From positions 1 through 54,556 of IMG/VR virus record IMGVR_UViG_3300032250_000707: DNA of 54,556 nt; one strand, given 5' to 3'. Numbering within the stretch: the stretch's first letter is position 1; each line of letters begins with the position of its first letter. This document shows, piece by piece, positions 11,294 to 31,861 of the stretch. Below the pieces are notes generated by a model that was not told where the DNA came from, ran no database searches, and saw only the letters and a list, made by a program, of their open reading frames with translations. Origin of the DNA: a virus (taxonomy: Duplodnaviria; Caudoviricetes). The translations under genes and the position numbers were made by a program.

Positions 11294-12544
11294 TTAGGCG
11301 CCCTGGGCTTCGAGCCAATCGCGGTGAAGCTCGGGGTTGGTCTTGATCACGGCCTCGAAGGCCTTGGCGCGGGATTTGCCGCTCTTTTCGATCTCGGAGA
11401 CCTTCTGCTCGAACTCGTGGACCCTGCCGCCCTTGGAGGTGACAGGGGAGATGGTCCCGTCAGCCGAGAAGGAGAGGACGCGGGTGCCGGTCTTGATGGC
11501 GTGGAGAAGGGTCTCGTTGCGCGCCTTGAGAGCACTCACCTCATCCTTGAGGGCGCTGTTCTCGGCGCTGAAAGCCTTCAGGTTGGCCTCGATCGTGTCG
11601 AAGTGATGGGCGGTCTCGGCGGCCTCGGCGGCGGCGTCCTCCCGGGAGAGGCGGGCCTGCAGCATGCGAACCTCTCGGGTCAGCGAGGAGAGGGCGGTGC
11701 CAGCCTCGGCGGGCGCAGCAGCACCAGCCTCGGAGCCTTCACCCTCTCCGGCGGCATGTTCGGCCTGGAGGGCGACGATGCCGGCGGCATCCTCTTCGGT
11801 GATTTCGCCAGCGGCGACGAGATCGGAGATCTGCTCCTCGCTCAGGGAGAGAATCTCCTCGAGCGTGGGGCCTTCCTCGTCGTGGGCGGCTTCCTGGATT
11901 GCGGCGATCTGCTGCCCCTGGGCAGCGACCGTCTCTTGGAGTCCTGTGATCGCGGCAAGGACATCCTTCAGGGTCGGTTCCTGCGCGCCGGTGGGGTTGG
12001 TGTTGTTTTCCATAGAGGTTTCGTCTTCACCACGCCCGTCAACTAAGTCGGGCAATTTGGCCTGCAGGAGTCCCGACGGATTGGCCGCGGGAGTGGCCAC
12101 TAAATCGACGGAAATCAAATCGCTGCAACGGGCGGCCATGAGCTTCTTGCCCTCCTTCTCGATCGGCTCGTCATCCCCAAGGAATGCTGCGGAAAGGCCC
12201 ACGTTCTTGGGCATGCGCTCGGCAAGCTCCATCGCCTGCTCGTACTGCGAATGGCTCTTGAGAAGGTGCCAGTCGGCCTTGAGCTGATTGCCCTCAAGAT
12301 AGAAGTTCTTGAGGTAGCCATTGACCGCATCGGCGCCGGTCTTGTGGTTCCACTTGGTCGGGACGGTTCCCATCTTCTCGCCGCACTCCTTGATCTGGCG
12401 AAGCGTGGTCATGTCCACCTCCAGGTCATGGCCGCGTGCGGTCACTCCGGCCGTAATGACGGAAACGCCGCGAATGATGCCGTTTCCCCGATCCACCTGG
12501 ACTCCAGAGAGTCCCAATCCATTGTCGAAAAGATGCTGCTTCAT
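11294..12544 (-). CDS. Prohead protease with C-terminal scaffold (416 aa)
   Basis: N-terminal domain IRGVSVIT.G..RGH...NH...VGLS...SVDLVATPAAN.GL; acidic coiled-coil C-terminal half; probable internal scaffold start at 12013. Confidence 0.8.
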   Translation of the reverse strand: MKQHLFDNGLGLSGVQVDRGNGIIRGVSVITAGVTARGHDLEVDMTTLRQIKECGEKMGTVPTKWNHKTGADAVNGYLKNFYLEGNQLKADWHLLKSHSQYEQAMELAERMPKNVGLSAAFLGDDEPIEKEGKKLMAARCSDLISVDLVATPAANPSGLLQAKLPDLVDGRGEDETSMENNTNPTGAQEPTLKDVLAAITGLQETVAAQGQQIAAIQEAAHDEEGPTLEEILSLSEEQISDLVAAGEITEEDAAGIVALQAEHAAGEGEGSEAGAAAPAEAGTALSSLTREVRMLQARLSREDAAAEAAETAHHFDTIEANLKAFSAENSALKDEVSALKARNETLLHAIKTGTRVLSFSADGTISPVTSKGGRVHEFEQKVSEIEKSGKSRAKAFEAVIKTNPELHRDWLEAQGA

Positions 12545-12669
12545 GCCCCTATGGGGGACATGTCAACGAATCGCCGAAGCGGCGATTTAGGAGTTAGAAG
12601 CTAGTAGCCAGTAGATAGGGGGGGGGAGAGGCTCCCACCCCCCAACTGCCGCTGACGCGGCGGGATGGC

Positions 12670-13488
12670 TCAGAGCGTGGTGCCTCCGCTACCGACCCCG
12701 CCACCCGGGGCCTCCTCACCGGCGGGTGCCTTGATCGATTTGGCGCGATAGGCCTTGATCTTGCGCGAGAGCTGACTCTCCCCTCCCCCGACGCGCTCAT
12801 CGATGGCGGCTACGTTGCGCTCCGGTTCCTGCGTGCCGTAGGCGGCGCGCATGGCGTCAGGGGTGAGACCGCTCTCGATATTGGGCTCATACTGGCCGTT
12901 GGCATTGCGCGGACGGGAATCGAACTGACGGAGACGGGAGGAGTGCGCAGATAGCTCTCGCAGCCGATCGGAAAACGATTTGGTCTCCTCCGAGGCGCCG
13001 GTAACGCGGCGACCGATCTTATAGGACCGCGCCTTGGATTCCTCGGCAAGGGTTCCGACCGCCTGGATCAGGCCCTGATCGGTCTGCCCTCGGGAGAGTT
13101 CGTTGATGCGGTATTGGATTTCTTTTTCCCGGTCCAGAAGCTCGGGGAAGATCTCCGAGCGAGACATGCCCTGCATGAACGCCAGGGCGGAGGATTGGAT
13201 CTCGGGAAGCCCGAACGACAGCCCCTCGCCAATCATGAGTTCGATCAGTTTGTCGTAGGAAGCCTCGTAGGTTCCGTAGAGTTCTCCCAGAAACTCGTGA
13301 TCCTCGAAGAACGATTGTCCGGAGGTCAGATTGTGAGCGTTGTGCGCGTAGAGCTGTAGGCCCCGGAAGAGAGCAGCCAGATCGATCAGATCCTCCACCA
13401 GGGAAGTGCCGCCCTCGGGCTTTTCCAGTTCGGAAAAGGAGCGCAACAGGGCGCAACGGGCCGAAAGTTCGCGGAGACGCGTGATCAT
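12670..13488 (-). CDS. Putative head cargo protein with ferritin/Dps-like domain plus short C-terminal module (272 aa)
   Basis: LQLYAHNAHNLTSGQSFFEDHEFLGELY...YDKLIE matches the Dps/ferritin helix A-B pattern; two RLRELSA...F leaders. Confidence 0.65.
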   Translation of the reverse strand: MITRLRELSARCALLRSFSELEKPEGGTSLVEDLIDLAALFRGLQLYAHNAHNLTSGQSFFEDHEFLGELYGTYEASYDKLIELMIGEGLSFGLPEIQSSALAFMQGMSRSEIFPELLDREKEIQYRINELSRGQTDQGLIQAVGTLAEESKARSYKIGRRVTGASEETKSFSDRLRELSAHSSRLRQFDSRPRNANGQYEPNIESGLTPDAMRAAYGTQEPERNVAAIDERVGGGESQLSRKIKAYRAKSIKAPAGEEAPGGGVGSGGTTL

Positions 13489-13493
13489 GGCGC

Positions 13494-14348
13494 TTAGACA
13501 ACCTTGCGCAGCCCGGAGAGGAGCCCGCGGATCTTTGATCCCAAGCCACCGGCGGCAGCTCCCGCACGGTAGAGCGGAGATGCTTTCTTAAGATCATCGC
13601 CAGCCTCGACCACCTTGGCAGTCCCGCCCAAACCGTGAGCGGCATCGACCGAAGGGGCGACTCCGCCAACCCTGGCCGAGTCATGCGAGAGCGGGGAATT
13701 GGTGGCCGCCGTGGCGACCGATCCGGATCCAGCACTGGTGGAGGGAGGATTAAATCCCTTGGAAAAGCCTCCCTTGAAATCATTGATTGCGGCGCCATAG
13801 GCCTGACCGACACCGCCAGCGCCTGCGCCATACTTGCGCATCACGGCCTGGTGGCCGAGGACAGCCCCAGCACCGAGACCGGCACCGGCCGCGGCATCAA
13901 GGATCGGATGGCCATTCTCATCGACCTTCTGATCGAAGGACTTCAGCGTGGAGGATTTCTCAGCCAGCTCCTTGAGGCGGTCGGCGGCCGAGAAGCGCTT
14001 GCCGGCGAGGGAACGGATCTTGGCAATCACATCGCTTCCCGCCTTCTTGTAGGCCTGCCCCACGGGAACGGAAACCTGCTTGGGCTTGATGAAGCGCCCC
14101 TTCTCACGGCGCAGGGTCTCCGTGCCATACTTCTTCATGACACCCACATGAGCCGCTCCAAGTCCGGCTCCGGCGAGGGCTGCCCCACCGGCGGCCTCGG
14201 CAATCCCGGGGCCATTGTAATGGTTCTCGATGCCGGTGAAATGCCCGTCCTTGTCGTAGGAGGCTTCGTTTTTGGTCAGGAGACCGAATTCTTTGACGGT
14301 CGAAGTGGTTTTGGCCGAAAGTTCGCGGAGGCGGGAAAGGGCGTTCAT
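13494..14348 (-). CDS. Putative head cargo protein with two glycine-zipper modules
   Basis: Internal repeat GAALAGAGLGAAHVGVMKKYG / GAGLGAGAVLGHQAVMRKYG, each preceded by RL(R/K)EL.....K.F; start ATG 14348 or GTG 14354. Confidence 0.7.
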   Translation of the reverse strand: MNALSRLRELSAKTTSTVKEFGLLTKNEASYDKDGHFTGIENHYNGPGIAEAAGGAALAGAGLGAAHVGVMKKYGTETLRREKGRFIKPKQVSVPVGQAYKKAGSDVIAKIRSLAGKRFSAADRLKELAEKSSTLKSFDQKVDENGHPILDAAAGAGLGAGAVLGHQAVMRKYGAGAGGVGQAYGAAINDFKGGFSKGFNPPSTSAGSGSVATAATNSPLSHDSARVGGVAPSVDAAHGLGGTAKVVEAGDDLKKASPLYRAGAAAGGLGSKIRGLLSGLRKVV

Positions 14349-14370
14349 AGTCACCCCTACCAAAGGAACG

Positions 14371-14562
14371 TCAACTCGCCATGGGTGGCTGTTGGCGAGA
14401 CCGGATCTCCCTCTGAAATCCCCTCACCCGCGCCAGCAAAAGGCGCCAGTCTCCGGTGGTGGCCCTCAGTCGGAATGGAAGCCTGATCCCAGGAATCCAG
14501 ACAGCCAGAGAGAGTTCGTAGCGAGGCGGGCGATTCTTAGCAGAGGCAAGAGCAGCAGCCAT
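14371..14562 (-). CDS. Possible small hypothetical protein (63 aa)
   Basis: Starts 4 nt after the giant ORF stop and fills the gap; no motif. Confidence 0.3.
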   Translation of the reverse strand: MAAALASAKNRPPRYELSLAVWIPGIRLPFRLRATTGDWRLLLARVRGFQREIRSRQQPPMAS

Positions 14563-14565
14563 GGA

Positions 14566-17500
14566 CTACGCCTGCTTCGGAACCCAGCCCGCGAACTTCT
14601 TGGACATCGGAACGATCTTGGGTGCAGGGGCGGATGCCGCCTTCTTGGCCAACTTCGGAATGATCGGCAGGCCCGTCAGCTTGCGCGTGGCCGCGACTCC
14701 GGCCGCGGCACCGATCAGGCCGGTTCCGACAATCGCCCCTTTGAGAAGCGCTTCACGGTTTTCTTTTTTCTCGTGCCATTCCTTCTGGCGGCGGAATCGG
14801 GGGCGGGAACCAGGGGCAAAGACCCGCGCGCTCTTACCACGCGCATCGCGGACATCCCAGCCAGCCAGCGCGGCATCAAGGTCGAACTGTTTGAATTTGC
14901 GGAGCTTGGCGGCAAAGAGACTGATGCCATGCTTGCGGGCGGTGGCATCGATTTTGCGGACTTGGGGTAGAATGTGTTTTTGGCCGAGTCGGGTTTTGGC
15001 GGTGAGGGCGGCGCCTCCAAGCAAGGCAGCACCGGTGGCCGCAGTGCCCACGGCGCGGTGGAACCACGATTTTTCCCATTCGCGCCGTTGGGGTCTTCCA
15101 GCGAGATCGGTTCTCCGACCTCGGCCTGCCATGACATCTCCGGTATCACGGAGCAGGTTGGTGGCGCGGCCTCCCCACTTGTGAATTCCCTTGGCCTTGT
15201 TGTAAAAACCGCGGGCGGTCTGATAGGTCCCGAGAGTGGCCGCGTTCCCCGAAGCATCGACCAAATCTCCATGGAGGCCGAGGGCAGCCCGAGTCGGGCT
15301 CACATAGCGCTGGGAATCTCTTTCCCGAAGCTGAGAAGAATAACCGAATTCCTTCAGGGCACCCTTGATTCGCCGTCCTAGATTTTTCTTGGTCCTGTCA
15401 TCCTGACCGGCTGCGGCCAAGCGAGAATTGTTGATGGCATCGACCATCATTCCCTCGTCGGCCCCCTGGTGGGCTCCGTAAAGGGCTCCGGCACCGGCAC
15501 CGACCGCCGCGGCGACGGGAGCGCGCGAGCTTTCGATGGCATGTAGAGGGCGCCATGTCTTGGCTCCCTTGGAGAATCCTGCGGCGATCTTGGGTCCCAG
15601 CATGCCCTTCTTTAGGGCCACGGCGCCAAGCCCACCAATGGCTGCCCCAGCCAGGGCTCCACCCACGGCGGCCCGCTTGGTGAAAGCGGCGCGGTCCGAG
15701 GGATCCGGGTTTCCAAGAACCTTGTTGCCGAGCGCAGTCCCGCCACCAGCCAGGGCTCCCATGGCCCCGGCACCGATCCCCGCTGCTCGCAGGGCCGATT
15801 TGATCGATTTCCCTCGGGTCAGGAGGGCAGTTCCGCCGCCAAGCAGGGCACCGGAGGCAGCTCCGGAGATCCCGGCTTTGAGGACCTGATGAGATCCATC
15901 CTCGCGATCACGGATGGCAAATTCCTTGCTTGGGGAGGATGCCCGGAGGCGCTCCTTGATATGCTTGGCCAACACTTTTCTAAAAACAGGAACCTGACGG
16001 TGCGCCGCATCGATCGGGACGGGCAGAGCGGAGGAGTATCCGGGAATGTCTTTTTTGAGAACGGCCTCGTAGGCCTTATCCCCAATGACATGAATGCTGG
16101 GACGGGCCTTAGCGAGCTTGCGGACATAATCCCCTCGGGCGAACAGCTTGGCCTTCTTGGCCACAAGCGCACCGGCAAGTCCGACGCCAGCAACCGCGGG
16201 AAGAGCTTCCGCGCGTTTGGCCCACCGAGGGCGGTCTCCGTAGATGTCGCGCTTCTTGTTGGTCGCGGCACGGATGGCGAGGACTCCTCCCACACCGGCT
16301 CCGGCACCGAGACCGGCTCGGATGAGGCGTTGCTTGATGGTGGATCCTTTCCCGTGGGTGAGCCATCCGGCGGCGGTGCCGCCCCACGCGGCACGGTCCA
16401 TGTTGCGGTCGCGGCGATCCAGATCGCTCTCATTGACCTGCTTGACAAAGCGGTCGCGATTCACTCGGCCCGTGTAGGGGATACCATCCTCCTCGGTGCG
16501 AAGGGCAAAATTCTTTTGATTTAATGTTTTCATGGATCGGCCGTCAGCCATTAGGTGGCCAAGGATTGTTTTGGGTGCTTTCGATTTTGCGAAGCCGCGC
16601 ACGAAGCTGGGCACGCCTTTCATCGTTGCGCCGAGTTTGCCAAAAATAGTGTTCCCCTTTTTGGATCTCAGAACGTTGAGCTTTCTTAGCGCCACATCAC
16701 CTTCGGGAGTTCCCTTAGCAGCCCTGGCAAGGCGCGCGAGCTTGGTCTCCAGATCGCCGCCGATTTCATCGCCTGATTTTTTAGAAGCAATGGAGGCAAA
16801 CTTAGGCATCCGAGGAATGAAGGTCTCCCCTTCGAGACCTTGGGCACGCCTTGACTTGGCCTGAACCTTGGCCGCATATTGAGGATCAGCCTTTCCGGTC
16901 ATACTAATCTTGATTTGATTCACCATGTCATCAGTGCGGTCTTTTTGAGCTTTTATCCTCTGAGAGATGCCTGCAGCAGCTAGTCCGGCAAAAGCAGCAT
17001 CTTTTCCGATCTCACGAACACTGCGCCTGCTTTCATCGGTCACTTTCATACGATTGCCTCGGATTCCAGTCTTGGCAGAGGCGATGTGCTCGGAGGCGCC
17101 CTGAGCCAAGGCACCAAGACCGGCTCCGATCAAGGTTCCTCGATTCATTCTTCCTCCGTGAACCGGATGCCAAGCAGCAACACGACCCGCGAGGCCGCCG
17201 ATCGCGGTCGTGCGCGCCATCCTTCCAGCCTTGTGAAGAGTGGTATCCTCATCCTCAAGTCGGCCAAACATCTTTGGTTTACCGAAATAGGCTTTCAACG
17301 TGGGTAGTGCATGATTCTGCGGGTAGGACTCCGTATAGCCTGGCTTGCCTTGTTCCCCGATGCTCTTGGGGTATTTCTTCAGCCCATCACGGCGTCGTTT
17401 GAAGTGGAGATAATCCATGGGCGCCATGGCCATGGAAGGAGCCGCGGCAGCGGCAGCTCCGATCAGGGCATATTTGCCGCGTGAAGATTTTGCAGCATGA

Positions 17501-20436
17501 ATACGCCATTTTTCAGGAATTGATCCTGCAGATGCTTTGTCTCGAAAAAGCGCATGGCCGAGCGCGCCATAGCCAGCCCCCAGGACTCCAGGAATCGCTG
17601 AGTTAATGGCGGTTTGCCTTGCAGCGGGCCTGAGAGGTCCGTTCTTCAGAAGCTCCTCGTCTTTTTTTTGCAGCTTTGGGTTTTTTTCAAAATGTTTAGC
17701 CGTATTGAACTGAGCTGAGAGCCTCACCAGCCGACCGAGCCATCCCTTGCGGAAGTTTCCGGCAGCCTGCTCGCCATGGGCCAAGACGGCGCGGATCGCC
17801 TTGGCGGTGGGAGTGACCTCATCGGCAGCTTTTCCGACCTTGAGCCCAGCATGAAGGACCCCGCCACCGGCGGCGAGCGCCCCGGCCGCGATGGCCCCAT
17901 CGCGTAGCTTCTCGGAGCCGGAACGCTCGCGACGATCAGCGGAGAATTCCTTGCCGGGGTTGGCCTGCTTCCAGACCGCATGAGTGCGGCGGACGGCTTC
18001 CTTCTCCCCCTTGGTGAGGTTGGGATTGCGGGCGAGGTTCTGGAAGCTGGCATTGCCTGCGCGATAGCGATCCTTGGCAGCCACCTTGGCAGCCTTGGCC
18101 CCCTCCGCGGCGCGAGCCTCCCCTGCCACACGGGCGTTGCGGCGGGCGGTGGCGATCTTGCTGGCCGTGGAGCGCTTGATGGCGAGCTTTTCAGCTTCCC
18201 CTACCGTGCCGCGCAATCCGCGGGCGCCCAGAGCAAGACCCGCGGCGAGGCCCGTGGAGAGAATGCCGGTCTTGAGGAGTTCGTGACGCTCCTCCTCGGG
18301 AGTCCGGGAGAAGAGTTTGATGCCGCCCAGGAGAGCGGAGCAGTTCCAGCGCTTGAGAGCCGCACCCTTGGGGGTGAGTTTGCCATCCTTGGAAGTGGGG
18401 CCGTGGACGCCGCCCATGCGGGCACAAAAGGAATCGCGCCGCTTGGCCGCCTTGCTTCCCGGCTTCAGCTCGGAGGGTTTTTCGGTGACGGGGCGCTGCA
18501 GATGCGATCCGTTCTCCCTGTTGTATTTCTCGCGGAAAGAGTCGTTGAGGCCGCCGGTGCGGGCATGGCGCTTGGCAGAGTAGCGCAGGAAAGGTTTCTC
18601 GAACTGCTTCATGCCCTGTTCCCGGGCGGTCAACTCTTCAAACCATTTGGTGAGCCCGAGGTTCTTTTTACCTGCAACCGTACTCGCAATGGTGCCTTTG
18701 ACCAGCTTGGCGATCCGTCGAGAGGCAGGGAGATGCTTGGCGGGAGATTTTCGTCCAAAAAGCTGTTTCCGGTAGGCCACGAGTTCCTCACCGGCCAACT
18801 TGGAAACCGTATCAGGAGCACCCCCTCGGCGCTGCTGGAGGAGGCTATGGACTATTTCGTGTCGCCGCAGCGCTTTGCGCGCCACTTGGTAAGGATCGGG
18901 AACAACGTCTCGAGAACCTCCCCCCAGGTGGGATCGAAGTGTTCCATTTCCCCCGGAATACGAGCGGATAATTTTTCCAAGGCGAGACCACTCGGGAGGG
19001 CGGATTCCTTTGGAAGGAATGGTGATCCTGCCCCCACGCTCGAGCTTGGAAACGCCGACATCGGATTTTCCCTGGGATCGATATTGCCTTTCAACGGATT
19101 GCCCTCCGGACTGGGACTCTTTTTCATGTTTCTTGAGAAGACCTCCCGCAGAAGTGTGGTCAGCGAGGCGATTGGAGTCGTGATGAACGGCGACATAAGG
19201 CGTAGAATACCCCTCCGGTATCAGCCCTGCAAAATCTTTTGTTGCGGCGGGATTGTGGCCCAACGCTTTGAGCTGCTGGCCACGGAAAGGCTGTTTCATG
19301 TGACCCATGCGGCCCGGATGGGAGAGCGAGAGCCACTCCTTGAACTGCTCGATCGTGCAGGTGGAGACAGGGCCGAGCTTCCAGTCCTTGGGGTAATGGG
19401 AGAGGTAGAGCCTCTCCGCCTGCTCGCGCGTGTCGCACCCCAGGATGAACTTGGTCTCGTCAAAGGACTCTCCCTTGTGCTGATCGATGGCAACCACGAG
19501 CTGGCTGCGATGCGATGGACCCAGGAAGACATCGACCTGATCGCCATCCTTCCCCTTGGTGCGAGGGATGTAGCCGTAGTCGGCGTGCATCTCATTGCCC
19601 CAAGGCTTGCCGTCATCATCCACGCCGCGCCGGATGCTGCCCCGGGGATTTTCCAGGGTGACCGGGATGCCCTGAAAGCTCAGGGATCCCTTGCGGTAGT
19701 TGCCCGCCTTTTTCTGGCCCTCGGTCGGGTTGCGATCCGTGCGGTTGCGCGCCTCATCGAGCGCGGCCTGATAGTCTGCCCGCTCAAACCATTTGGTGAT
19801 GTATCCCTTGTCGACCTGATATTTGGTGCTGCGATAGGCGCCGCGGATCGCGCTTTTGATCCGGTCGGCAAGCGGACGGGATCTGTTTGGGGATTTTTTC
19901 CCGAGAAACTGATTTTTGTTTGCGGCTAACTCTTCGACAAAAGCCGAAGCAATACTCTTGGGAGGACCACCCCTTCTTTGCTGGAGAACGCTAGGGGTGA
20001 TCTCGTGCCTGCGGATGCCCTTCTGGGCATTGCGGACTAATACTCCATAGTCGGAACCCCCAGGCTCCGATCCCGCAGGTCGCGGGATGACATTTCGCAG
20101 GGAGCGCTCGGGCGGGAAGACAAGGAGCCCTCCGTCACGCAATCGCCGCTCGGCAAGCCCTCTTCTCTGCTCGAGAGTGGACGAGGGATGCTTAGGAACG
20201 ATGGCTGCTGCCCGCTCCTTGTAAATACTATCGACGGACTTGGGAGCATCCAATTCAGCATCCTTTTCATAAGCGGAACGAAGAGTGGTCGAGTGGGCAT
20301 AGGATCCAAGGGGTTCACCAGGGGGAGGAGGGCGGCGATCTACCGCCGGTCGAATGTATCCCTCGGGAATCATCCGGGCAAACTCTTTCAGCCACCCGAT
20401 CGCGTCGAGGGCATGCTCAAGACGGTCGGCACTCAT
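14566..20436 (-). CDS. Giant modular polyvalent/polyprotein-like virion protein (1956 aa): two zincin-like modules, InPase-like domain, DUF6321-like domain, many glycine-zipper modules
   Basis: ATGA-coupled to portal; NPTEGQKKAGNYRKG...ENPRG...DYGYI..T.G.DGD.VDVFLGP...FDE.K (InPase of polyvalent proteins); RRHEIVH...EE; GGLN...KAAKRRDSFCARM...ALKRWNC. Confidence 0.85.
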   Translation of the reverse strand: MSADRLEHALDAIGWLKEFARMIPEGYIRPAVDRRPPPPGEPLGSYAHSTTLRSAYEKDAELDAPKSVDSIYKERAAAIVPKHPSSTLEQRRGLAERRLRDGGLLVFPPERSLRNVIPRPAGSEPGGSDYGVLVRNAQKGIRRHEITPSVLQQRRGGPPKSIASAFVEELAANKNQFLGKKSPNRSRPLADRIKSAIRGAYRSTKYQVDKGYITKWFERADYQAALDEARNRTDRNPTEGQKKAGNYRKGSLSFQGIPVTLENPRGSIRRGVDDDGKPWGNEMHADYGYIPRTKGKDGDQVDVFLGPSHRSQLVVAIDQHKGESFDETKFILGCDTREQAERLYLSHYPKDWKLGPVSTCTIEQFKEWLSLSHPGRMGHMKQPFRGQQLKALGHNPAATKDFAGLIPEGYSTPYVAVHHDSNRLADHTSAGGLLKKHEKESQSGGQSVERQYRSQGKSDVGVSKLERGGRITIPSKGIRPPEWSRLGKIIRSYSGGNGTLRSHLGGGSRDVVPDPYQVARKALRRHEIVHSLLQQRRGGAPDTVSKLAGEELVAYRKQLFGRKSPAKHLPASRRIAKLVKGTIASTVAGKKNLGLTKWFEELTAREQGMKQFEKPFLRYSAKRHARTGGLNDSFREKYNRENGSHLQRPVTEKPSELKPGSKAAKRRDSFCARMGGVHGPTSKDGKLTPKGAALKRWNCSALLGGIKLFSRTPEEERHELLKTGILSTGLAAGLALGARGLRGTVGEAEKLAIKRSTASKIATARRNARVAGEARAAEGAKAAKVAAKDRYRAGNASFQNLARNPNLTKGEKEAVRRTHAVWKQANPGKEFSADRRERSGSEKLRDGAIAAGALAAGGGVLHAGLKVGKAADEVTPTAKAIRAVLAHGEQAAGNFRKGWLGRLVRLSAQFNTAKHFEKNPKLQKKDEELLKNGPLRPAARQTAINSAIPGVLGAGYGALGHALFRDKASAGSIPEKWRIHAAKSSRGKYALIGAAAAAAPSMAMAPMDYLHFKRRRDGLKKYPKSIGEQGKPGYTESYPQNHALPTLKAYFGKPKMFGRLEDEDTTLHKAGRMARTTAIGGLAGRVAAWHPVHGGRMNRGTLIGAGLGALAQGASEHIASAKTGIRGNRMKVTDESRRSVREIGKDAAFAGLAAAGISQRIKAQKDRTDDMVNQIKISMTGKADPQYAAKVQAKSRRAQGLEGETFIPRMPKFASIASKKSGDEIGGDLETKLARLARAAKGTPEGDVALRKLNVLRSKKGNTIFGKLGATMKGVPSFVRGFAKSKAPKTILGHLMADGRSMKTLNQKNFALRTEEDGIPYTGRVNRDRFVKQVNESDLDRRDRNMDRAAWGGTAAGWLTHGKGSTIKQRLIRAGLGAGAGVGGVLAIRAATNKKRDIYGDRPRWAKRAEALPAVAGVGLAGALVAKKAKLFARGDYVRKLAKARPSIHVIGDKAYEAVLKKDIPGYSSALPVPIDAAHRQVPVFRKVLAKHIKERLRASSPSKEFAIRDREDGSHQVLKAGISGAASGALLGGGTALLTRGKSIKSALRAAGIGAGAMGALAGGGTALGNKVLGNPDPSDRAAFTKRAAVGGALAGAAIGGLGAVALKKGMLGPKIAAGFSKGAKTWRPLHAIESSRAPVAAAVGAGAGALYGAHQGADEGMMVDAINNSRLAAAGQDDRTKKNLGRRIKGALKEFGYSSQLRERDSQRYVSPTRAALGLHGDLVDASGNAATLGTYQTARGFYNKAKGIHKWGGRATNLLRDTGDVMAGRGRRTDLAGRPQRREWEKSWFHRAVGTAATGAALLGGAALTAKTRLGQKHILPQVRKIDATARKHGISLFAAKLRKFKQFDLDAALAGWDVRDARGKSARVFAPGSRPRFRRQKEWHEKKENREALLKGAIVGTGLIGAAAGVAATRKLTGLPIIPKLAKKAASAPAPKIVPMSKKFAGWVPKQA

Positions 20437-25007: not shown

Positions 25008-25339
25008 CCGCCATGACTAAATCGCAGGAACTTTCGATCCTCGACGAGGCCATCAGCAAGCTCGGCACCGGGTCCTATCTCGGGCCATGGCTTCGCGAGG
25101 TGCGCGACGAGGTGGAGGGGATGATCCGCTCTGACATCTTTCCCACCGAGATTTCCATCGCGAGGACGAATGAACTCTGTGTCTCCAGGATCGAGACAGC
25201 CCATAAGCACTGCAAACAGCTCGGCGAGGATGCCCGCAAGGAAGCCGACCGCATCATTGAGACAGCCAACGATCAAGCAAGGTCCTCCCGAGCCTACGCC
25301 AGAAAATGCCTCAACGAAGCCATAGACCGAATCCAATGA
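25004..25339 (+). CDS. Hypothetical coiled-coil protein (111 aa)
   Basis: ATGA coupling. Confidence 0.7.
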   Translation: MTAMTKSQELSILDEAISKLGTGSYLGPWLREVRDEVEGMIRSDIFPTEISIARTNELCVSRIETAHKHCKQLGEDARKEADRIIETANDQARSSRAYARKCLNEAIDRIQ

Positions 25340-25560
25340 CCTGCCCGAGCTGCCAACTGATGGTGATCCAAGGGGTCATCTGTCACGAACACGGCTGCCC
25401 CGATAATCACCTCTTCACCACCCAGGAATGCAAGTGGTGCGGGACAGAATTCCGACCCACAGAGAAGCGCCGTGATTACTTCTGCAGCGCATCCTGCGCG
25501 GCGGCCTACCACGGCCATCCCGAGCCCGAATTTGACGAATCCTACGCCCTTCCATCATGA
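25336..25560 (+). CDS. Small zinc-binding protein (74 aa)
   Basis: CPSC...CHEHGCP and CKWCG.EF...FCS.SC motifs; ATGA coupling. Confidence 0.7.
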   Translation: MTCPSCQLMVIQGVICHEHGCPDNHLFTTQECKWCGTEFRPTEKRRDYFCSASCAAAYHGHPEPEFDESYALPS

Positions 25561-26270
25561 ATGACCTCGAAACCATTCCCTATCGGGGATGCACGATCCG
25601 CGTCGTATCCGACGATCATCCCGGCAATCCTCGCAAGGAATTTGACCACCTTGCCACGATGGTCTGCTGGCATGGCCGGTATGACCTCGGCGACGAGCAA
25701 CCCAAGGAGAATGCGGGCGACTATCTCTGCCGCATGGCCGCCGAGAAGGACGAGGGCTTTTCAAGGCTCAACGACCTGTATGATGAGGCCCTCAGACGCG
25801 GAAGCGACCGCGCCTGCCAGCGCATCAATCGTCGTCTCGCCCGCGAGCGCGAGCGCGTGCTCGCCGAGCATTACGTCATCCAGCCGCTCTATCTCTACGA
25901 GCACTCCGGGATCACCATCAGCACGGGATCCTTTTCCTGTCCGTGGGACAGCGGCCAGGTCGGCTTCATCTTCATCCCGCTGGAGACCATTCGCAAGGAA
26001 TGGCCCGTCATCCCAGATGGCCTGACGATCCAGCAATGGGCCGAGAAGATCATCGAGGGCGAGGTGAACGAGTATGACGCCTACCTGACCGGCGATGTCG
26101 TCGGCGTGATCGCCGAGGACGAGGAGGGCGAAGAGATCGACTCCTGCTGGGGATACTACCCCGACGAGAAGGGATCCCACGACTACGCCGTGGAGGATGT
26201 CAAATCCGCGATCGACCACCACCTTGAGCGCCAGGCCGAACTGGCCACCGACCTCTGCTGCAACATCTAA
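25557..26270 (+). CDS. Acidic phage early protein (237 aa)
   Basis: NPR.E.D...H.RYDLGD...PLYLYEHSG...WDSGQVGFI...DSCWGYY motif series. Confidence 0.8.
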   Translation: MNDLETIPYRGCTIRVVSDDHPGNPRKEFDHLATMVCWHGRYDLGDEQPKENAGDYLCRMAAEKDEGFSRLNDLYDEALRRGSDRACQRINRRLARERERVLAEHYVIQPLYLYEHSGITISTGSFSCPWDSGQVGFIFIPLETIRKEWPVIPDGLTIQQWAEKIIEGEVNEYDAYLTGDVVGVIAEDEEGEEIDSCWGYYPDEKGSHDYAVEDVKSAIDHHLERQAELATDLCCNI

Positions 26271-26303
26271 CATTCCCACTTTCCCACTTTTCCACCTTTC
26301 CCC

Positions 26304-26912
26304 ATGAGCGCCACCACCCCCGATACCGTCCTGGCCGCCCTCCCGTGGTTCCCAGGATTTTACAACTCCATCCTCGACGATCTCATGGATCGCACCATCG
26401 AGATGGAGATGGAGGACACCGGCGAGACCTATGACCAAATCATGGATCGCTATTCCGCGCACCTCGCCATGCAGGCCATAGCCAAGGCCTGGGTCAAGGG
26501 ATTCGCCAAGGAGACCGGCATCCCCGTGGAGCTGGAGGAGGTGCAGTCTCCGAAGTTCTATAACTTCACAACCGACCGCCTCTTTGTGCGAGTCCCCATC
26601 GATACGATCGAGAAGATCGCGAGCCAGATGGACGACAAGCCCCTCCGCGAGACGATCCGCAAGAATCATTCGAGCAGGTCGGGCTTCATCAGCTTCTACT
26701 CCAACGATCTCGACGATCCCGAGTGGCAAAAGCCCGTCCGCGACTGGGATCTCAATCAGCTCGGCACCCTGCTCGAGGCCAAGCTCCTCCAGGATGACTA
26801 CGACCAGGAGTATCTTGAGGACTCCTGCTACAGCGAGGCCGCCTTCATGGGCGCGGAAGATGCAGGATGGATCAAGGATCGTCCCGAGAAGGAGGCCCCA
26901 TGCGCGAGCTGA
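26304..26912 (+). CDS. Acidic phage early protein (202 aa)
   Basis: FPGFYNS...SPKFYNFTTDR...SRSGFISFYSND motif series; D/E-rich. Confidence 0.8.
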   Translation: MSATTPDTVLAALPWFPGFYNSILDDLMDRTIEMEMEDTGETYDQIMDRYSAHLAMQAIAKAWVKGFAKETGIPVELEEVQSPKFYNFTTDRLFVRVPIDTIEKIASQMDDKPLRETIRKNHSSRSGFISFYSNDLDDPEWQKPVRDWDLNQLGTLLEAKLLQDDYDQEYLEDSCYSEAAFMGAEDAGWIKDRPEKEAPCAS

Positions 26913-26973
26913 TCGAAGACACCCTCGGGGCCATCGGCCTCTTCGCCCTCATCTACCTGATGTTTCTGCTGAC

Positions 26974-27258
26974 ATGAGCACACCCATCCTACCTTGGTAT
27001 TTCAAGACTGCGTTTAACAAAGCCGATCAAGGACTCATCATCGAGGAGCAAACCGGCAGGACCGTCGCCGTGAGCTACGACGGCAAGGATGCACCACTCC
27101 TCGCCGCAGCTCCCGAGATGCTCGCAACCCTGCAAGCCTGCCTGGAGGCCATGGGGGACTACTACGACGCCAAGGATGCCGCAGGCGACGAGGGGGCACG
27201 CCTTCACGATCTCATCACCTCCACCATCTACAAGGCCACCCAATCAGCCATCCCATGA
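26974..27258 (+). CDS. Phage protein of the LxAAAPEL type (94 aa)
   Basis: PW...DAPLLAAAPEMLATL; start refined to ATG 26974. Confidence 0.7.
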   Translation: MSTPILPWYFKTAFNKADQGLIIEEQTGRTVAVSYDGKDAPLLAAAPEMLATLQACLEAMGDYYDAKDAAGDEGARLHDLITSTIYKATQSAIP

Positions 27259-27635
27259 CCACCAACGCCATAGAAACCAAGCTCAAGGAAGCCTCCGCCA
27301 AAGAAGCCGAGAATAATTGGGAAACCACCTGGAAAAGCCAGACCAGCTCCTTCATGGCGATGCTCTCGGAGAGATGCTCGACGAGTTGCTACAACACGGG
27401 CAACACAACCGCCCCGTTCCTCGTTCTGCCGCACAGATCCATCCATTACTGCTACCAAGTTTATCAGGAAGTAAATGGTGCAAACGGTCGCCGAGAGGAA
27501 AAGCTTACAAACAAATTGATGATCGAGGTCTCCTATCTGGAGGAGCAGGTAAAGAAGACATGGATTGCTCACGAGACTGACCGCATCTTCAAGATCAAGC
27601 TCGAGCACTTGCTCTCGGTAGCGGGAGTCGCATGA
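27255..27635 (+). CDS. Hypothetical protein (126 aa)
   Basis: ATGA coupling. Confidence 0.6.
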   Translation: MTTNAIETKLKEASAKEAENNWETTWKSQTSSFMAMLSERCSTSCYNTGNTTAPFLVLPHRSIHYCYQVYQEVNGANGRREEKLTNKLMIEVSYLEEQVKKTWIAHETDRIFKIKLEHLLSVAGVA

Positions 27636-27835
27636 AACTCATTCACCTAAAGCCAACCCGAGGAGATGCCTCAGAACGCCTCAAACTCTACTGCCCCGTC
27701 CTCAATCGGTCGCTCCTCTGGAACGAAGCCGCACAAGCCGGATGGATGGTCGACATCGAGGGAAAGCCGTTCCACATCGAGTCCTACTACTCCCCGGAAC
27801 GCCTCAAGGCCGAGGGGATCAATCCCAATAGTTAA
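27632..27835 (+). CDS. Hypothetical protein (67 aa)
   Basis: ATGA coupling. Confidence 0.6.
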   Translation: MKLIHLKPTRGDASERLKLYCPVLNRSLLWNEAAQAGWMVDIEGKPFHIESYYSPERLKAEGINPNS

Positions 27836-27838
27836 AGC

Positions 27839-28006
27839 ATGAAAACCTACGAAGTCGGCATCCGTGCCACCATCTGCAAGCGCCTCACCGTATTGGCCGA
27901 GAACGAACAGGACGCCATCGAGGCCGCCCATGAGCAGTTCAGCGTGCTCAACGACGACATCCCCGAGAACTACGAAGAGGAGACCGATTTCTGCCGAGTC
28001 AAATGA
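27839..28006 (+). CDS. Small DpnD/PcfM-like protein (55 aa; not in the ORF track)
   Basis: Manual translation MKTYEVGIRATICKRLTVLAENEQDAIEAAHEQF...FCRVK*; fills the gap with ATGA overlap. Confidence 0.65.
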   Translation: MKTYEVGIRATICKRLTVLAENEQDAIEAAHEQFSVLNDDIPENYEEETDFCRVK

Positions 28007-28287
28007 TCCTCTTCATCCCCAACACCAATCCCAAGTCGGAGTTCTCTCACTTTGAGATTAGCCCGAAACGTCAGGATCCCGAGAGCAACGCGGATAATAT
28101 CCGCGAAATCTGGACCGACGAGGAGAACCCCGAGTTCTGGAGCGTCTATGGCCGCGAACGTCTCAAAGATGAACCTGACTCCGAGTGCGGAGGCCCAGCG
28201 ACATGGATTGCAGACTTTGAAACCGAAGGCCTTGCTCTCGAGTTCATCCGCCAGCTCAACGGATCAATTCAAGACCATGAGCTTTAA
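28003..28287 (+). CDS. Hypothetical acidic protein (94 aa)
   Basis: Coupled ORF; FWSVYG...WIADF. Confidence 0.65.
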   Translation: MILFIPNTNPKSEFSHFEISPKRQDPESNADNIREIWTDEENPEFWSVYGRERLKDEPDSECGGPATWIADFETEGLALEFIRQLNGSIQDHEL

Positions 28288-28486
28288 GATCCAGACGATC
28301 GGCGTCCACGGATGGGGCGATGTCAAAGTCGCATACGACGAGAGCGAGGACTACCAGGACTGGCACTTCAAGACCCGCAAGGAGGCCATCGCCGAGCTGG
28401 AGGACTTCCGCGATCTCGACCCCAAGCTGACCTCTTACCGAGTCGTCCCCACCACCACCCCCTCTCAAGAAGACTTTTATTCATGA
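28277..28486 (+). CDS. Hypothetical protein (69 aa, MSFKIQT)
   Basis: Start refined; GW...F.TR.EA.AEL..F...YRVV. Confidence 0.65.
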   Translation: MSFKIQTIGVHGWGDVKVAYDESEDYQDWHFKTRKEAIAELEDFRDLDPKLTSYRVVPTTTPSQEDFYS

Positions 28487-28686
28487 TCACAAAATCCACT
28501 TACCAAGTCAGCGTGACGGTTAATGTACCGGCCTATGCCACGGTCGAGATCGAGGCCACTAGCCAGGAAGAAGCGGAGAAGATCGCCGCGCGCGAGATCC
28601 GCGGTGACGAATGGGAAAGCGACATCTGGCAAAATCTGGTCTTCACCCCTGCATGGGAGGAGGCCGAGGGATTGTGCGTCTCATGA
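28483..28686 (+). CDS. DpnD/PcfM-like small protein (67 aa)
   Basis: YQVSVTV...TVEIEATSQEEAEKIA; ATGA coupling. Confidence 0.65.
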   Translation: MITKSTYQVSVTVNVPAYATVEIEATSQEEAEKIAAREIRGDEWESDIWQNLVFTPAWEEAEGLCVS

Positions 28687-28979
28687 AAACCGCCGAATCA
28701 GCCCTCAAGGCCGACGTGGAGATCACCGCGCGCGAGTTCAACAAGCGCCACGAGTGGGACATCAACGCCGCCATCGATCTCGCCAAGGAAGTCCTGACCG
28801 ACGCAAACGCCCACCAAGAGGTGCGCTACCTCACCCACGGGGAGGAACTAGCCGATGCCCTGCGCCAACTCCTGGAGCGTAGCCACAGCCTCGACCAATC
28901 CCCAACCCATGACGGCCTCCTCAACTGCGAGGCCATCGCCCGCGCCAGGGAAGCCCTCCGCAACATCGCACGACCATGA
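28683..28979 (+). CDS. Hypothetical protein (98 aa, MKTAESAL)
   Basis: ATGA coupling at both ends. Confidence 0.65.
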   Translation: MKTAESALKADVEITAREFNKRHEWDINAAIDLAKEVLTDANAHQEVRYLTHGEELADALRQLLERSHSLDQSPTHDGLLNCEAIARAREALRNIARP

Positions 28980-29224
28980 GCACCAAGCGAAAGATGCCCG
29001 ACGATCTCACCGAGATGCAGGATGAGATCACCGATATGCTTCTAAAGATCCACAAAACCGAAGGAGCAGAAGGGGTGCGTAATATCTTGCGCATGGCGGT
29101 CGTTAACTACATTTACGAGACACCAGTTCCAGGACGCCACAAAGGCCTGCAGCGTATCCAACTCCTCAATCAGCTCGCCGAGGCCATCACCATCCCCTGC
29201 CACGCGCATGATACCATCTCATGA
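28976..29224 (+). CDS. Hypothetical protein (82 aa)
   Basis: ATGA coupling. Confidence 0.6.
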   Translation: MSTKRKMPDDLTEMQDEITDMLLKIHKTEGAEGVRNILRMAVVNYIYETPVPGRHKGLQRIQLLNQLAEAITIPCHAHDTIS

Positions 29225-29241
29225 TCACCCAGCCCCAGCCA

Positions 29242-29289
29242 CCGATTGCGAATCGGAGCCCCTCTGCTACAGTGGGATCCATGAACTCA
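29242..29289 (+). promoter_or_regulatory. Repeat R1 copy a: sigma70-like promoter for a probable leaderless transcript
   Basis: TTGCGA-16 nt-TACAGT with extended TG, ATG 7 nt downstream; CCGATT/AATCGG palindrome over the -35; 47/48 identical to 31111-31158. Confidence 0.7.
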
Positions 29290-29634
29290 ATTTTCTCGAT
29301 TGTCCCTCGCAAGATGATCAAGGGTCCGCTCTGGGTGTTTGACGATCCGGATCGCGGGCTCCAGGCAGAACCTTTTCTTGAGGACGCATCCGCAGCACTC
29401 GATAAGATCGCCGAAAAGATCGGAGCAGTCGGGGAAATGGTGCTCGCTTTTTCAGCTACCGAGATACCCGACGCAACCATGGTCATCGAGCGCATCGGAT
29501 CAGGAGACCATGCGGATCTCCATGGCGTGCTCTATCTTTTCGAGAAAAAGAGGGTCTGGCTTTGCCCGGCGACCACCAAGTATTTCCCGAAGCCACCAGA
29601 AAAAATCTGGCTCAAGGCTTATCGCTACGCATAA
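29281..29634 (+). CDS. DUF6717-like protein (117 aa)
   Basis: MNSI..I.P....WVFDD...GL..EPF...FSA...WLCPA..KYF..PP..I pattern. Confidence 0.75.
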   Translation: MNSIFSIVPRKMIKGPLWVFDDPDRGLQAEPFLEDASAALDKIAEKIGAVGEMVLAFSATEIPDATMVIERIGSGDHADLHGVLYLFEKKRVWLCPATTKYFPKPPEKIWLKAYRYA

Positions 29635-29707
29635 TGTGTTTTTATGATCGGAACCGTCCTTGATCTTTTTGTGAAATCGATGGCAGAGCAAGCTGCTTTG
29701 GCCGCCG

Positions 29708-30865
29708 TCAAGGCCGCAAAAGAAAAGGCCGGAGAACTCGCGGATTATCTCCAATATCCTGCGCCGCATTCAAACTCGGAGTCGCAAGATAGTCCTCGAT
29801 GTGACGACCAATCCCCGTCTTAGCTCCTGAGGCAGCCCCTTTTGCAAATCGGTCTTTGAGGATTTTGGTTCCGTATTTTGAATGCGCAACAGCCGTGCGG
29901 ACTACATTGTATGCCGGATAGATCGGTTCCACGGCGGCCATGGCGCCACCTACGATTCCAGCTCCCATGTAATCAGATTTCTTGGGGGCCCTATTCATCG
30001 GCACCTGCGGGAGCTTTGAGATGATTTTTTCAGTAATCTTGGATCGCGGTCCAGCCACAATCCCGGCAGCGGCTTTTGTTGCCTGGTTGGCCCCAGGGAT
30101 CTTTGAAGCAATAATGGTCCCTCCCTTTCTTAAAAAACGCCTGCTACCCAGGCCCTGATGGTAGATTTCCGCAAGTTCAGGGCCCGCCACAATGTCCGCC
30201 GTTTTTGTAATCGCAGGGTGGATCATTTTACCGGATTTCGCATGACGAACACCTGTCTGGTAAATAGCCGCTCCAACCCTGTTCATCAGCGTATTGGGCT
30301 TGAGCATCCTTTTGTAGAGAACATTCATCCCGACATGTAATCCACCAGCAATTCCCGCGCCAGCCAGCAGGGAGAATTCTTTCTTCTTGAGGATGACGTT
30401 AGGAGCCCCGGAGACATGATCAGCCTGATAGCCAGCACGCCGAGCCATCCTTTCATAATGGCTACCCAGCTTCTCATTGGTCGTAATTCCAGAGGTCTCG
30501 GGAGAGAGCGTTTCTGGACGATAGACAATTTCTTTCCTGTTCTTGCTGAGATTGGCAAGCATCGGCTTCATAATCCCTCCGACTCGGGCACCATTGCGGT
30601 AAGTTCTGTGGTCGTCTTCCGGTGAGTCCACAATGTCCCAAGAGACGCGATCTTTACTTTTGCGATTCAAGATCTGAGAAACCTCCGGGTTGTCCTTATG
30701 CCGGATCGTCACCGTCCTGGGATACCGAGCCCCGGAATCAGGTGTGATAAGACTCCACCTGGTCCCAGGAGCCCACTTGCCGCCAAGTCGACCAGTGAAC
30801 ACGCCGGTTTTGTATCCAAACTCAGACAGGGCCGCCAGACCCCTAAGCCTTTCCATGAAATTCAT
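29708..30865 (-). CDS. Putative head cargo protein, two modules (385 aa), antisense within the early island
   Basis: Leader MNFMERLRGLAALSEF|G; internal KKKEF|S followed by glycine zipper; TTGAC 15 nt upstream. Confidence 0.75.
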   Translation of the reverse strand: MNFMERLRGLAALSEFGYKTGVFTGRLGGKWAPGTRWSLITPDSGARYPRTVTIRHKDNPEVSQILNRKSKDRVSWDIVDSPEDDHRTYRNGARVGGIMKPMLANLSKNRKEIVYRPETLSPETSGITTNEKLGSHYERMARRAGYQADHVSGAPNVILKKKEFSLLAGAGIAGGLHVGMNVLYKRMLKPNTLMNRVGAAIYQTGVRHAKSGKMIHPAITKTADIVAGPELAEIYHQGLGSRRFLRKGGTIIASKIPGANQATKAAAGIVAGPRSKITEKIISKLPQVPMNRAPKKSDYMGAGIVGGAMAAVEPIYPAYNVVRTAVAHSKYGTKILKDRFAKGAASGAKTGIGRHIEDYLATPSLNAAQDIGDNPRVLRPFLLRP

Positions 30866-30885
30866 CACCCACCACCAAACGTCAA
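30852..30885. repeat. Repeat R2 copy a (34 bp): TTGAC box plus start of the antisense gene
   Basis: TCCATGAAATTCATCACCCACCACCAAACGTCAA, identical at 31848-31881. Confidence 0.9.
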
Positions 30886-30886
30886 C

Positions 30887-31087
30887 ATGACTCCACAAGA
30901 TTTCATCGAGTGCGCGAGTAAAAGAGGGTTTCACCTTTCAGAAGCCGACGCTCTCGACATTCGAGACAGGTGGGCCATGCCAGGAGAATCCGCGGAAAGC
31001 GCGATCTGCGGATGGTTGCTTTGTTTTGAAACGTGCGATCCTAATCTCGAGGTAAAATTCGGACTTCCGGCCAGCATCTTTGCATGA
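30887..31087 (+). CDS. Hypothetical protein (66 aa, MTPQDFIE)
   Basis: Start refined; A/C-rich leader supplied by R2. Confidence 0.55.
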   Translation: MTPQDFIECASKRGFHLSEADALDIRDRWAMPGESAESAICGWLLCFETCDPNLEVKFGLPASIFA

Positions 31088-31110
31088 ACACCCAAACACT
31101 TACCCCGCCT

Positions 31111-31158
31111 CCGATTGCGAATCGGAGCCCCTCTGCTACAGTGAGATCCATGAACTCA
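31111..31158 (+). promoter_or_regulatory. Repeat R1 copy b: sigma70-like promoter
   Basis: CCGATTGCGAATCGGAGCCCCTCTGCTACAGTGAGATCCATGAACTCA. Confidence 0.7.
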
Positions 31159-31512
31159 GTCAATACCCCCATCCAGAAAGCAGTTATTAACTTTCTCATC
31201 GAGACTAAGAGAAGGGTTGCCTGGAATGGAAATCCATGCACGCCGATCCAGATGTTCCGAAAAGGAGAACGCCTCGGAGGCATAAATCAACCATGCGATG
31301 TCGTTGCGTTTTTCCCGACACCGAAGGAGTTCTCTACGATGCCACTGCCGGAATTTTGCCGGATCTACGGAATCAAGGTTCCTGAAGTCCCTGCAGGTCC
31401 TGCGAATGAAGTCCAGGGCGCGCCTTCTTGCGCCACTCTTCCGATCCCGGAGCCCATTTATTCCTCCGGTTGGCCAGGCGCGAAGCCTCTGCCGCTGGAA
31501 CATGCGGTCTGA
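31150..31512 (+). CDS. Hypothetical protein (120 aa, MNSVNTP)
   Basis: Starts at the R1b ATG; 3' end overlaps the convergent gene. Confidence 0.55.
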   Translation: MNSVNTPIQKAVINFLIETKRRVAWNGNPCTPIQMFRKGERLGGINQPCDVVAFFPTPKEFSTMPLPEFCRIYGIKVPEVPAGPANEVQGAPSCATLPIPEPIYSSGWPGAKPLPLEHAV

Positions 31513-31861
31513 GGTTGGTGGCAAATCCACTCGCCTTTTCAGAGCGGTGATGATTTGCCGTCAGCCATAGGAAGTCATCCGGCCTCTCCTCGGCAAGCTG
31601 CAGAGCCGCCATGGGGTGCATCGGGCCGGTGTAGATTTTCCCGTTGGAGGCCTGCACGGTCACATGGGTCTTTAGGATTTTTTCATCCACAGGGGATTTC
31701 TTCCGAGCCGAAGAAAATCTCTCCCGCCAGACGCTTCGCGGGGCACGACCTTTAGCAAGCGCAGAACGCGCCGCCTCGTAATTTGGATACCCAAGCTCTT
31801 TGTAACTGAATAAGAGTTCCGAAAATTCCGACACTTTCCTCAATCGCTCCATGAAATTCAT
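31373..31861 (-). CDS. Putative head cargo protein (162 aa), antisense within the early island
   Basis: Leader MNFMERLRKVSEF|SELLF|S; TG..H...GF.TN...V...EA...LHSQDL small phage domain; TTGAC 15 nt upstream. Confidence 0.7.
   Translation of the reverse strand: MNFMERLRKVSEFSELLFSYKELGYPNYEAARSALAKGRAPRSVWRERFSSARKKSPVDEKILKTHVTVQASNGKIYTGPMHPMAALQLAEERPDDFLWLTANHHRSEKASGFATNLRPHVPAAEASRLANRRNKWAPGSEEWRKKARPGLHSQDLQGLQEP

Follow-up and report, generated by a model that had tools for sequence, protein, structure and literature searches.

The window analysed here is the whole of a 54,556-bp IMG/VR virus record of the Caudoviricetes (IMGVR_UViG_3300032250_000707; completeness estimate 68%). Its late genes run on the minus strand, in the order large terminase, a block of mainly plus-strand small genes, portal, a 1956-aa open reading frame (ORF; hereafter the giant ORF), g284, g272, a 416-aa protein (the protease-scaffold fusion), a decoration-like protein, the MCP (major capsid protein) and tail-side ORFs. 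Five proteins of this region, termed cargo proteins below, begin with a short leader of common design that ends at a Phe. Coordinates of genes and protein segments refer to the minus strand unless stated otherwise. The leaders comprise aa 1-18 of g272 (13435-13488), aa 1-21 of g284 (14286-14348), aa 1-19 of the giant ORF (20380-20436), aa 1-16 of g385 (30818-30865) and, in a shorter form, aa 1-13 of g162 (31823-31861). Internal copies are present in g272 (aa 173-189, 12922-12972) and g284 (aa 120-138, 13935-13991), and g385 has a further KKKEF↓S site at aa 164 (30374-30388; the arrow marks the putative cut). All leader strings quoted in a preliminary description of this DNA were found in the genes to which they had been assigned, on the minus strand. 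The leader has the core L-x-E-L-(S/D/N/A)-A, followed after 3-11 residues by (L/V/I)-(K/R)-x-(F/L) and then mainly by S, A, G, D or E. The sequences behind the leaders had been described as unrelated. This is correct between proteins; within g284, however, the two modules are paralogous.

The site [KR]-x-F-[SAGDE] occurred 24 times in the five cargo proteins, where 5.51 were expected, and none of 20000 shuffles reached 24. The giant ORF alone had 17 sites (3.60 expected; 0 of 5000 shuffles reached 17). The protease-scaffold fusion had 2 (0.35 expected), and the MCP and five tail proteins together had 0 (3.49 expected).

A hidden Markov model (HMM) of the leader was seeded on the five window leaders only and run on six-frame translations of the window and 80 related loci, with a cut-off of 10 bits. 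The first round gave 13 unique matches at or above the cut-off vs 0 reversed decoys. After iteration there were 34 unique matches vs 0 decoys, 32 of the 34 being on the gene strand; the same module was thus found in relatives. The HMM did not reach into divergent clades (L021 onward). Leaders there were found by reading N-termini and have a like construction in other wording, e.g. L-x-E-L-S-A-K-L-D-G-x-L-x-x-F↓. The construction was also present in five loci from metagenome-assembled genomes (MAGs) that were fetched later and lay outside the training set (L084, L085, L090, L093 and L097). A strict pattern, L.[EQKRD]L[SDNAE]A.{3,11}F[SAGDE], gave 40 unique gene-strand, 7 opposite-strand and 4 reversed matches; requiring a Met no more than 12 aa upstream left 22, 1 and 1, respectively. 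It was used in place of a loose regular expression, which was uninformative (134 gene-strand, 80 opposite-strand and 82 reversed matches). Leader-bearing genes were confined to head modules, either in the portal-to-protease interval or just 3′ of the MCP gene. The residue before the putative cut (P1) was Leu in three of six internal leaders of the g272 family and in several more in L001 and L043. The rule is therefore not Phe only, as had been proposed, but F or L. The listings leave an impression of a lineage-specific leader "dialect". A comparison of leader similarity within and between genomes gave 1.07 vs 0.85 identities over 7 positions; it was based on the loose-pattern set, which is contaminated by false positives, and was dropped.

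Some arrangements in relatives are recorded here as separate observations. In L004 and L007 (~12.7-15 kb, proteases ~53% identical), three to four leader-bearing Gly/Ala-rich genes lie directly 3′ of the capsid gene, and in L007 these are followed by a gene like that of single-stranded-DNA-binding protein with the usual acidic-Pro-Phe tail. An ORF of L043 (5486-6028) has one leader at its start and a second at its end, followed by three residues only (MEF↓GAR-stop). The second leader might be a tag at the C-terminus, or it might result from an error in assembly or from a frameshift that fused the ORF to the following one.

Borders of genes and of homologous segments were then compared with the F sites. 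In g272, a domain termed DSRPRN follows RQF↓; in 7 of 11 distinct contexts (L003, L005, L009, L011, L015, L016 and L017) it forms an ORF of its own, opened by Met plus 0-2 residues, and in L084 it is preceded by a lineage-specific leader ending in F. Relative to its L001 orthologue, the giant ORF has an extra segment, aa 917-1307, bounded by F916 and F1310; its InPase block is also not in that orthologue. The two paralogous domains of the giant ORF both open with F↓A-x-x-IPEGY. Residues 163-372 of g385 were 37% identical to a head-module ORF of L043, with homology beginning at the KKKEF↓S site; in L043, the sequence ahead of this domain consists of KKKEL↓S, then a leader, then F↓S. The g284 modules recur in L001 within a 598-aa protein that has further [F/L]↓SAKDRL(R/K)EL units. 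Because homology and gene borders repeatedly coincide with F sites, leader plus module is the evolutionary unit, and the modules are delimited by the motif.

In the protease-scaffold fusion (11294-12544), a disordered N-terminal peptide up to F6 (12527-12544) is followed by the protease domain (aa 14-161, 12062-12505), and residues 166-416 (11297-12049; pI 4.5) form an acidic scaffold part. It had no family match in Pfam or PHROG, and a profile of the protease domain found no protease among PDB sequences; the relation was visible only by fold comparison. An AlphaFold model of aa 1-170, based on 30 sequences, had a mean predicted local distance difference test score (pLDDT) of 84.9. Its best PDB match was T4 gp21 (5jbl_A; VIA Z 11.9, root-mean-square deviation 3.1 over 132 aa; Foldseek E 5.8e-4, probability 1.00). 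The next fold matches were the herpes assemblins of varicella-zoster virus (Z 8.0) and human cytomegalovirus (Z 6.6), and unrelated MCE domains scored below Z 6. The earlier assignment of this neighbouring gene as a prohead protease is thus borne out at the level of fold. Residues H39, D44, H67, D91, E106, S118, R139 and S145 were invariant in the 30 sequences; the His and Ser residues H39, H67 and S118 are candidate catalytic residues. Residues 1-13 were disordered in the model (pLDDT < 50) and variable in sequence; F6 was invariant in 26 of 26 aligned sequences. An F lay 8-16 residues ahead of the first strand in 108 of 113 homologues, and two of the exceptions carried Leu.

The scaffold part has F315, F325, F359, F378 and F396 in its last 100 residues, and the next residue is always D, S or E. 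The sites at F6, F315, F325, F359 and F378 had been quoted before and were all present; F396 is additional. Conservation of F378 reaches at least 90% of the sequences. F followed by E, S, A or D made up 80% of 723 F contexts when the scaffold parts of 120 homologues, a set with redundant sequences, were counted. The F sites and the acidity fit a scaffold that is degraded. We also considered that the leader might be a copy of a scaffold helix. This idea was left without statistical support, the leader HMM giving only partial matches of 1-5 bits to scaffold proteins. Complex prediction for the fusion with aa 1-45 of g272 scored 0.00 in both runs; with no controls run, the score speaks neither for nor against binding. 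Automatic JGI names in this family (P0001-P0120) include "primosomal protein N′", "PopZ", "TolA-binding protein" and "YcfJ", which look like low-complexity misannotation of the scaffold part.

The cargo proteins are basic, with pI 10.6 for the giant ORF, 10.3 for g385, 10.1 for g162 and 9.9 for g284. The giant ORF (14566-20436), a putative cargo polyprotein, lies between the portal and protease genes. It contains an InPase domain (aa 240-369, 19330-19719; PF18823, E 1.7e-43), DUF6321 (18346-18564; PF19846, E 5.9e-13) and 12 Gly/Ala-rich hydrophobic stretches. PHROGs matching the InPase region are labelled "virion structural protein" and "minor head protein". InPase together with DUF6321 places the giant ORF among the polyvalent proteins as defined by Iyer et al. 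2017. Its paralogous domains (19786-20379 and 18601-19230) each begin directly after an F site. The second contains HEIVH (aa 526-530, 18847-18861), of which a degenerate copy is found at 19993-20007. The surrounding motif (R/K)HE(I/V)(V/T)HS..QQRRGG is conserved, and a Glu-Glu pair twenty residues downstream (E51/E52) is invariant. This HExxH domain is rare, with only 12 representative clusters found in 1.84 billion proteins, and HE..H was kept in all 12. It has no Pfam family, and its model (7 sequences) was too poor for fold assignment (pLDDT 53.2). The domain is a candidate for a new minimal zinc peptidase.

g272 (12670-13488) is a two-module cargo protein with a ferritin/Dps-like domain (aa 19-172, 12973-13434) and the DSRPRN domain (12673-12921). 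It had no Pfam match at E ≤ 0.01, and its phmmer match in PDB, to NapA of the Dps family, was weak (E 0.047). The domain is called ferritin/Dps-like because 5 of 14 homologues (E 1e-19 to 1e-21) carry a precomputed PF00210. g284 (13494-14348) consists of two modules, each a leader and a Gly/Ala-rich part. g385 (29708-30865) has a C-terminal domain at 29711-30373. For g162 (31373-31861), no relatives were found in the related loci examined. With permissive Pfam settings, DUF6321 was the only family found when g284, g385, g162, the DSRPRN domain and segments of the giant ORF were scanned. In relatives, some proteins at the cargo position have a zincin-type xHExGH motif (L007 4492-7074, L009, L016, L017 8806-9978, L037, L043 7483-8928, L055 and L085). 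Several of these open with a DSRPRN domain; the motif is not in g272 of the window.

The similarity of leader genes extends into the DNA upstream. In an exact 34-nt direct repeat (30852-30885 and 31848-31881), the 20 nt upstream of the ATG, TTGACGTTTGGTGGTGGGTG, run on into the opening 14 nt of g385 and of g162; the repeat accounts for the identical MNFME starts of these proteins. Three leader genes (g284, g385 and g162; the g284 copy at 14357-14374) have the element TTGACGTT-N(3-12)-GGTRG 12-19 nt upstream of their ATG; the window has no further copy, and shuffles expect 0. The element may act as a promoter or in translation, in common for the cargo genes. The 34-nt repeat and this element indicate that a 5′ cassette beyond the peptide is shared. 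A 56-nt direct repeat (95% identical; 29234-29289 and 31103-31158) lies in plus-strand ORFs arranged tail-to-tail with g385 and g162; each of the two leader genes thus appears to be one half of a two-gene unit that was duplicated.

The sequence phenomenon is well supported; as to mechanism, we infer cleavage, the enzyme responsible, encapsidation and the partner that binds the helix. The preliminary description proposed a portable targeting helix with a cleavage site. Portability stood: the module is conserved on non-homologous head-module proteins of relatives whose proteases are only 30-55% identical. Targeting is the weaker half of the proposal. Our preferred reading, held with middling confidence, is that the leader may be a T4-style "address and cut here" tag with a different protease rule. 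Loading into the capsid and cutting at the leader are its most likely roles. During procapsid assembly the tag would tie the very basic cargo to the protease-scaffold fusion, which is acidic. Cutting after Phe or Leu would then fall to the gp21-fold serine protease, which would remove the leaders, split the 1956-aa polyprotein into ~15 pieces and break up the scaffold at the F sites within it. The products, among them InPase, the ferritin/Dps-like domain and the Gly/Ala-rich membrane-type segments, would remain in the head and exit with the DNA.

The closest parallels are the capsid targeting sequence of T4, carried by IPI-III and Alt and removed by gp21, and the propeptides of giant phages (e.g. 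SPN3US). There, as here, a short N-terminal peptide is common to unrelated, basic head-internal proteins, the head location being presumed in our case. The tag ends at a rule that may also mark scaffold proteins, the protease of gp21 fold is encoded next to the cargo, and some of the cargo would be enzymes that work in the host. The rule differs, however, with Phe or Leu at P1 and Lys or Arg at P3 in place of the Glu of T4. Here, in addition, the tag is a 13-21-residue amphipathic helix that is also found between the modules of polyproteins, protease and scaffold form one fusion protein, the head belongs to the Mu/lambda type, and the hosts are bacteria of the Planctomycetes-Verrucomicrobia-Chlamydiae (PVC) group. 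Encapsulin cargo-loading peptides offer an analogy only: a short peptide brings cargo, typically ferritin-like, into an HK97-fold shell, and a ferritin/Dps-like protein is tagged here. Those peptides usually sit at the C-terminus; they attach to the shell protein and stay uncleaved. The element in the window, unlike an encapsulin, has portal, terminase and tail genes. To our knowledge, phage-delivered protein cargo is known in detail only for T4-like, giant, P1, N4 and P22/T7-type phages.

In Staphylococcus phage 80alpha, as described in passages of PMC5744158, non-homologous head proteins share a 13-14-residue N-terminal leader that is cut after Phe, and the motif is found on other proteins of related phages. 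Cleavage there is by Prp, a cysteine protease of the host with a second role in the maturation of ribosomal protein L27, and it is capsid and scaffold, not cargo, that bear the tag. Here the capsid protein has no leader, a phage protease adjoins, and the hosts lie outside the Firmicutes. Iyer, Burroughs, Anand, de Souza and Aravind (2017; PMC5512222) predicted that InPase polyvalent proteins are packaged and processed. The giant ORF resembles these as a multi-domain head-module protein with InPase (PF18823), as defined in that paper. The passages of it covered here propose processing by embedded peptidases and do not mention a shared leader, a Phe rule or prohead-protease processing. Those of the JBD30 paper (PMC11445458) contain nothing on cleavage rules. 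In the part of the open literature covered, capsid-targeting sequences turned up only for T4, SPN3US-type giant phages and P1; no Phe-ending leader on Mu/lambda-type phage cargo was found.

Several observations weigh against the address-and-cut reading. F[SAGDE] alone was barely enriched in cargo (41 vs 32.8 expected, matched by 810 of 20000 shuffles), so it is the combination of Phe at P1 with a basic residue at P3 that carries the motif signal. At the N-terminal F of the protease, the residue after the putative cut (P1′) was H in 22, Y in 21 and D in 19 of 110 homologues. This is unlike the cargo sites, and we therefore regard self-cleavage at F6 as possible only; this F may be structural instead. 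In the ferritin-like family, 6 of 15 alignment rows open with only M-(E/S/T)-(L/I)-D-F↓S and no helix. Such starts indicate that cut motif and helix are separable and that the helix is dispensable for the F↓S role. The DSRPRN domain of several relatives has no leader whatever, and many cargo proteins have HExxH motifs that could do the cutting. A tblastn search of 50,697 deposited phage records with the protease gave no match, which leaves the family without a cultured relative. All related loci were chosen for presence of the protease, so the association of leader and protease is seen from one direction only.

The starts without a helix are also what would be expected if the tag were a cut site only. 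The F or L would then be a processing site and the helix a recognition element or an excised spacer, as in retroviral polyproteins, and cargo would enter by charge, DNA binding or portal binding. This reading, which we consider unlikely, is in line with other short starts in L007 and L004 (MSSLREF↓S and MKKLHEF↓Y), with DSRPRN genes that exist without a leader and with the contrast between strongly basic cargo and acidic scaffold. The internal leaders are bounded by sites at both ends ([F/L]↓SAxDRL...F↓), as excised spacers would be. Against it, the helix seems, by an impression from the listings, to keep a genome-specific flavour on non-homologous proteins and to vary in flavour between lineages, which goes beyond what positions P4-P1 need, and in T4 the two functions are joined. 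A rather unlikely further possibility assigns the fusion itself the role of cargo receptor. The inactive protease would grip the Phe-ending helix in its substrate groove and the scaffold half would carry it into the procapsid, so that the peptide would serve as address, tether and release switch and the leader dialect would co-evolve in each lineage.

The agent of cleavage could also be another enzyme, either a cargo-embedded metallopeptidase (the HExxH domain of the giant ORF or the xHExGH proteins of relatives) or a host protease like Prp; we find this improbable. The conservation of HE..H in 12 of 12 representative clusters, the invariant E51/E52 and the occurrence of xHExGH in cargo-position ORFs of 8 of 19 loci examined are consistent with it. 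However, the HE..H[SA]..Q motif was found in only 6 of 105 loci, and 8 of the 19 loci examined, including the leader-rich L003, L005, L021, L084 and L090, had no HExxH in the available head-module ORFs. The HExxH domain model, with its pLDDT of 53.2, gives no fold support, and F sites also stud the scaffold part of the fusion. Published work also bears on both branches. Autoproteolysis of polyvalent proteins by embedded peptidases is proposed in passages of PMC5512222; host Prp, according to those of PMC5744158, cuts F↓A on the leaders of the 80alpha capsid and scaffold proteins, and the motif is present on non-homologous proteins of other phages. Prp with the L27 extension is a Firmicutes-type trait (PMC5744158), whereas the MAG hosts, in which no search for Prp was made, are PVC bacteria. 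The least probable reading involves no cleavage at all. The helix would be an assembly or oligomerisation element, for scaffold-helix pairing or membrane insertion after ejection, the Phe a hydrophobic anchor, and the tag would have spread by duplication or recombination of a 5′ cassette. The exact repeat shared by g385 and g162 does include upstream DNA, and the TTGACGTT...GGTRG element upstream of three cargo genes suggests that the whole cassette moves. Scaffolds hold the idioms RELSAR and LKEF↓A separately, yet reach only 1-5 bits against the leader HMM. A protease site fits better than an anchor because genes split exactly after F, domains that were gained or lost have F sites at their ends, P3 is enriched in basic residues and the motif is not in capsid and tail proteins.

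If the address-and-cut reading is true, this logic extends to the Mu/lambda-type phages that infect Verrucomicrobiota and Planctomycetota, a group both large and uncultured, which would use a Phe/Leu-specific family of gp21-fold proteases without a name in Pfam or PHROG. Injected cargo would be predictable from sequence and would include, in each genome, ~2500 residues belonging to basic, membrane-type and enzyme modules, and a second, orthogonal tag for protein loading into HK97-fold capsids would be available. The prediction for metaproteomics is peptides that begin directly after K-x-F. If instead the fusion were a receptor, it would offer a naturally modular, re-addressable means of protein loading for HK97-fold shells, and the ferritin/Dps-like cargo would link phage loading to encapsulin-type ferritin loading.

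The portal (20433-22148) is of the lambda family (PF05136, E 1.6e-43; 149.7 bits vs a cut-off of 32.9). Its N-terminal 29 aa (22062-22148) end in LKLF↓S (F29), and it had been counted among the leader carriers. We do not retain this view: the portal N-terminus can be aligned from residue 1 with the portals of Bordetella phage PY223 and Providencia phage PSTCR8lys, in which V or L replaces F29, and the MNFLER start is shared by lambda-family portals generally and does not copy the leader. Cultured phages with a homologous portal N-terminus use ClpP-type or lambda C-type proteases. Cutting at F29 is conceivable; lambda gpB loses its N-terminus. The MCP (9915-10874; phrog_1005, E 8.4e-36) was 21-24% identical to the capsid proteins of B3 and KS10, and a decoration/cement-like protein (10906-11262; phrog_673/122) is encoded next to it. 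For this pair (9915-11262), PF09956 scored below cut-off, and neither protein has a [KR]xF[SAGDE] site. The head had been called lambda-like; the combination of a Mu-like capsid protein, a portal of the lambda family and a protease with the fold of T4 gp21 describes it better.

The protease-scaffold family comprised 289 proteins at E ≤ 0.001 among 8000 scored candidates and 339 confirmed stretches in IMG/VR. Species-representative genomes contained 27 loci with the family, every one in a MAG. By title, we take these to be 21 loci from Verrucomicrobiota, 5 from Planctomycetota and 1 from Sumerlaeota. Judged by these records, the family is large and uncultured, and within MAGs it is limited to Verrucomicrobiota and Planctomycetota, plus one Sumerlaeota.

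A PHROG search of five tail-side ORFs, including one of 1186 aa, gave no match. The phage is probably a siphophage, in which the 1186-aa ORF, without a family match, would occupy the tape-measure position. The large terminase gene (34958-36835; phrog_15, E 3.1e-101) is separated from the portal gene by a block of ~12.8 kb, mainly of small plus-strand genes, with the minus-strand g162 and g385 inside it. This insertion of small ORFs (22000-34900) splits the packaging/head operon in an unusual way, and its GC content falls to 0.49 at 22-24 kb.

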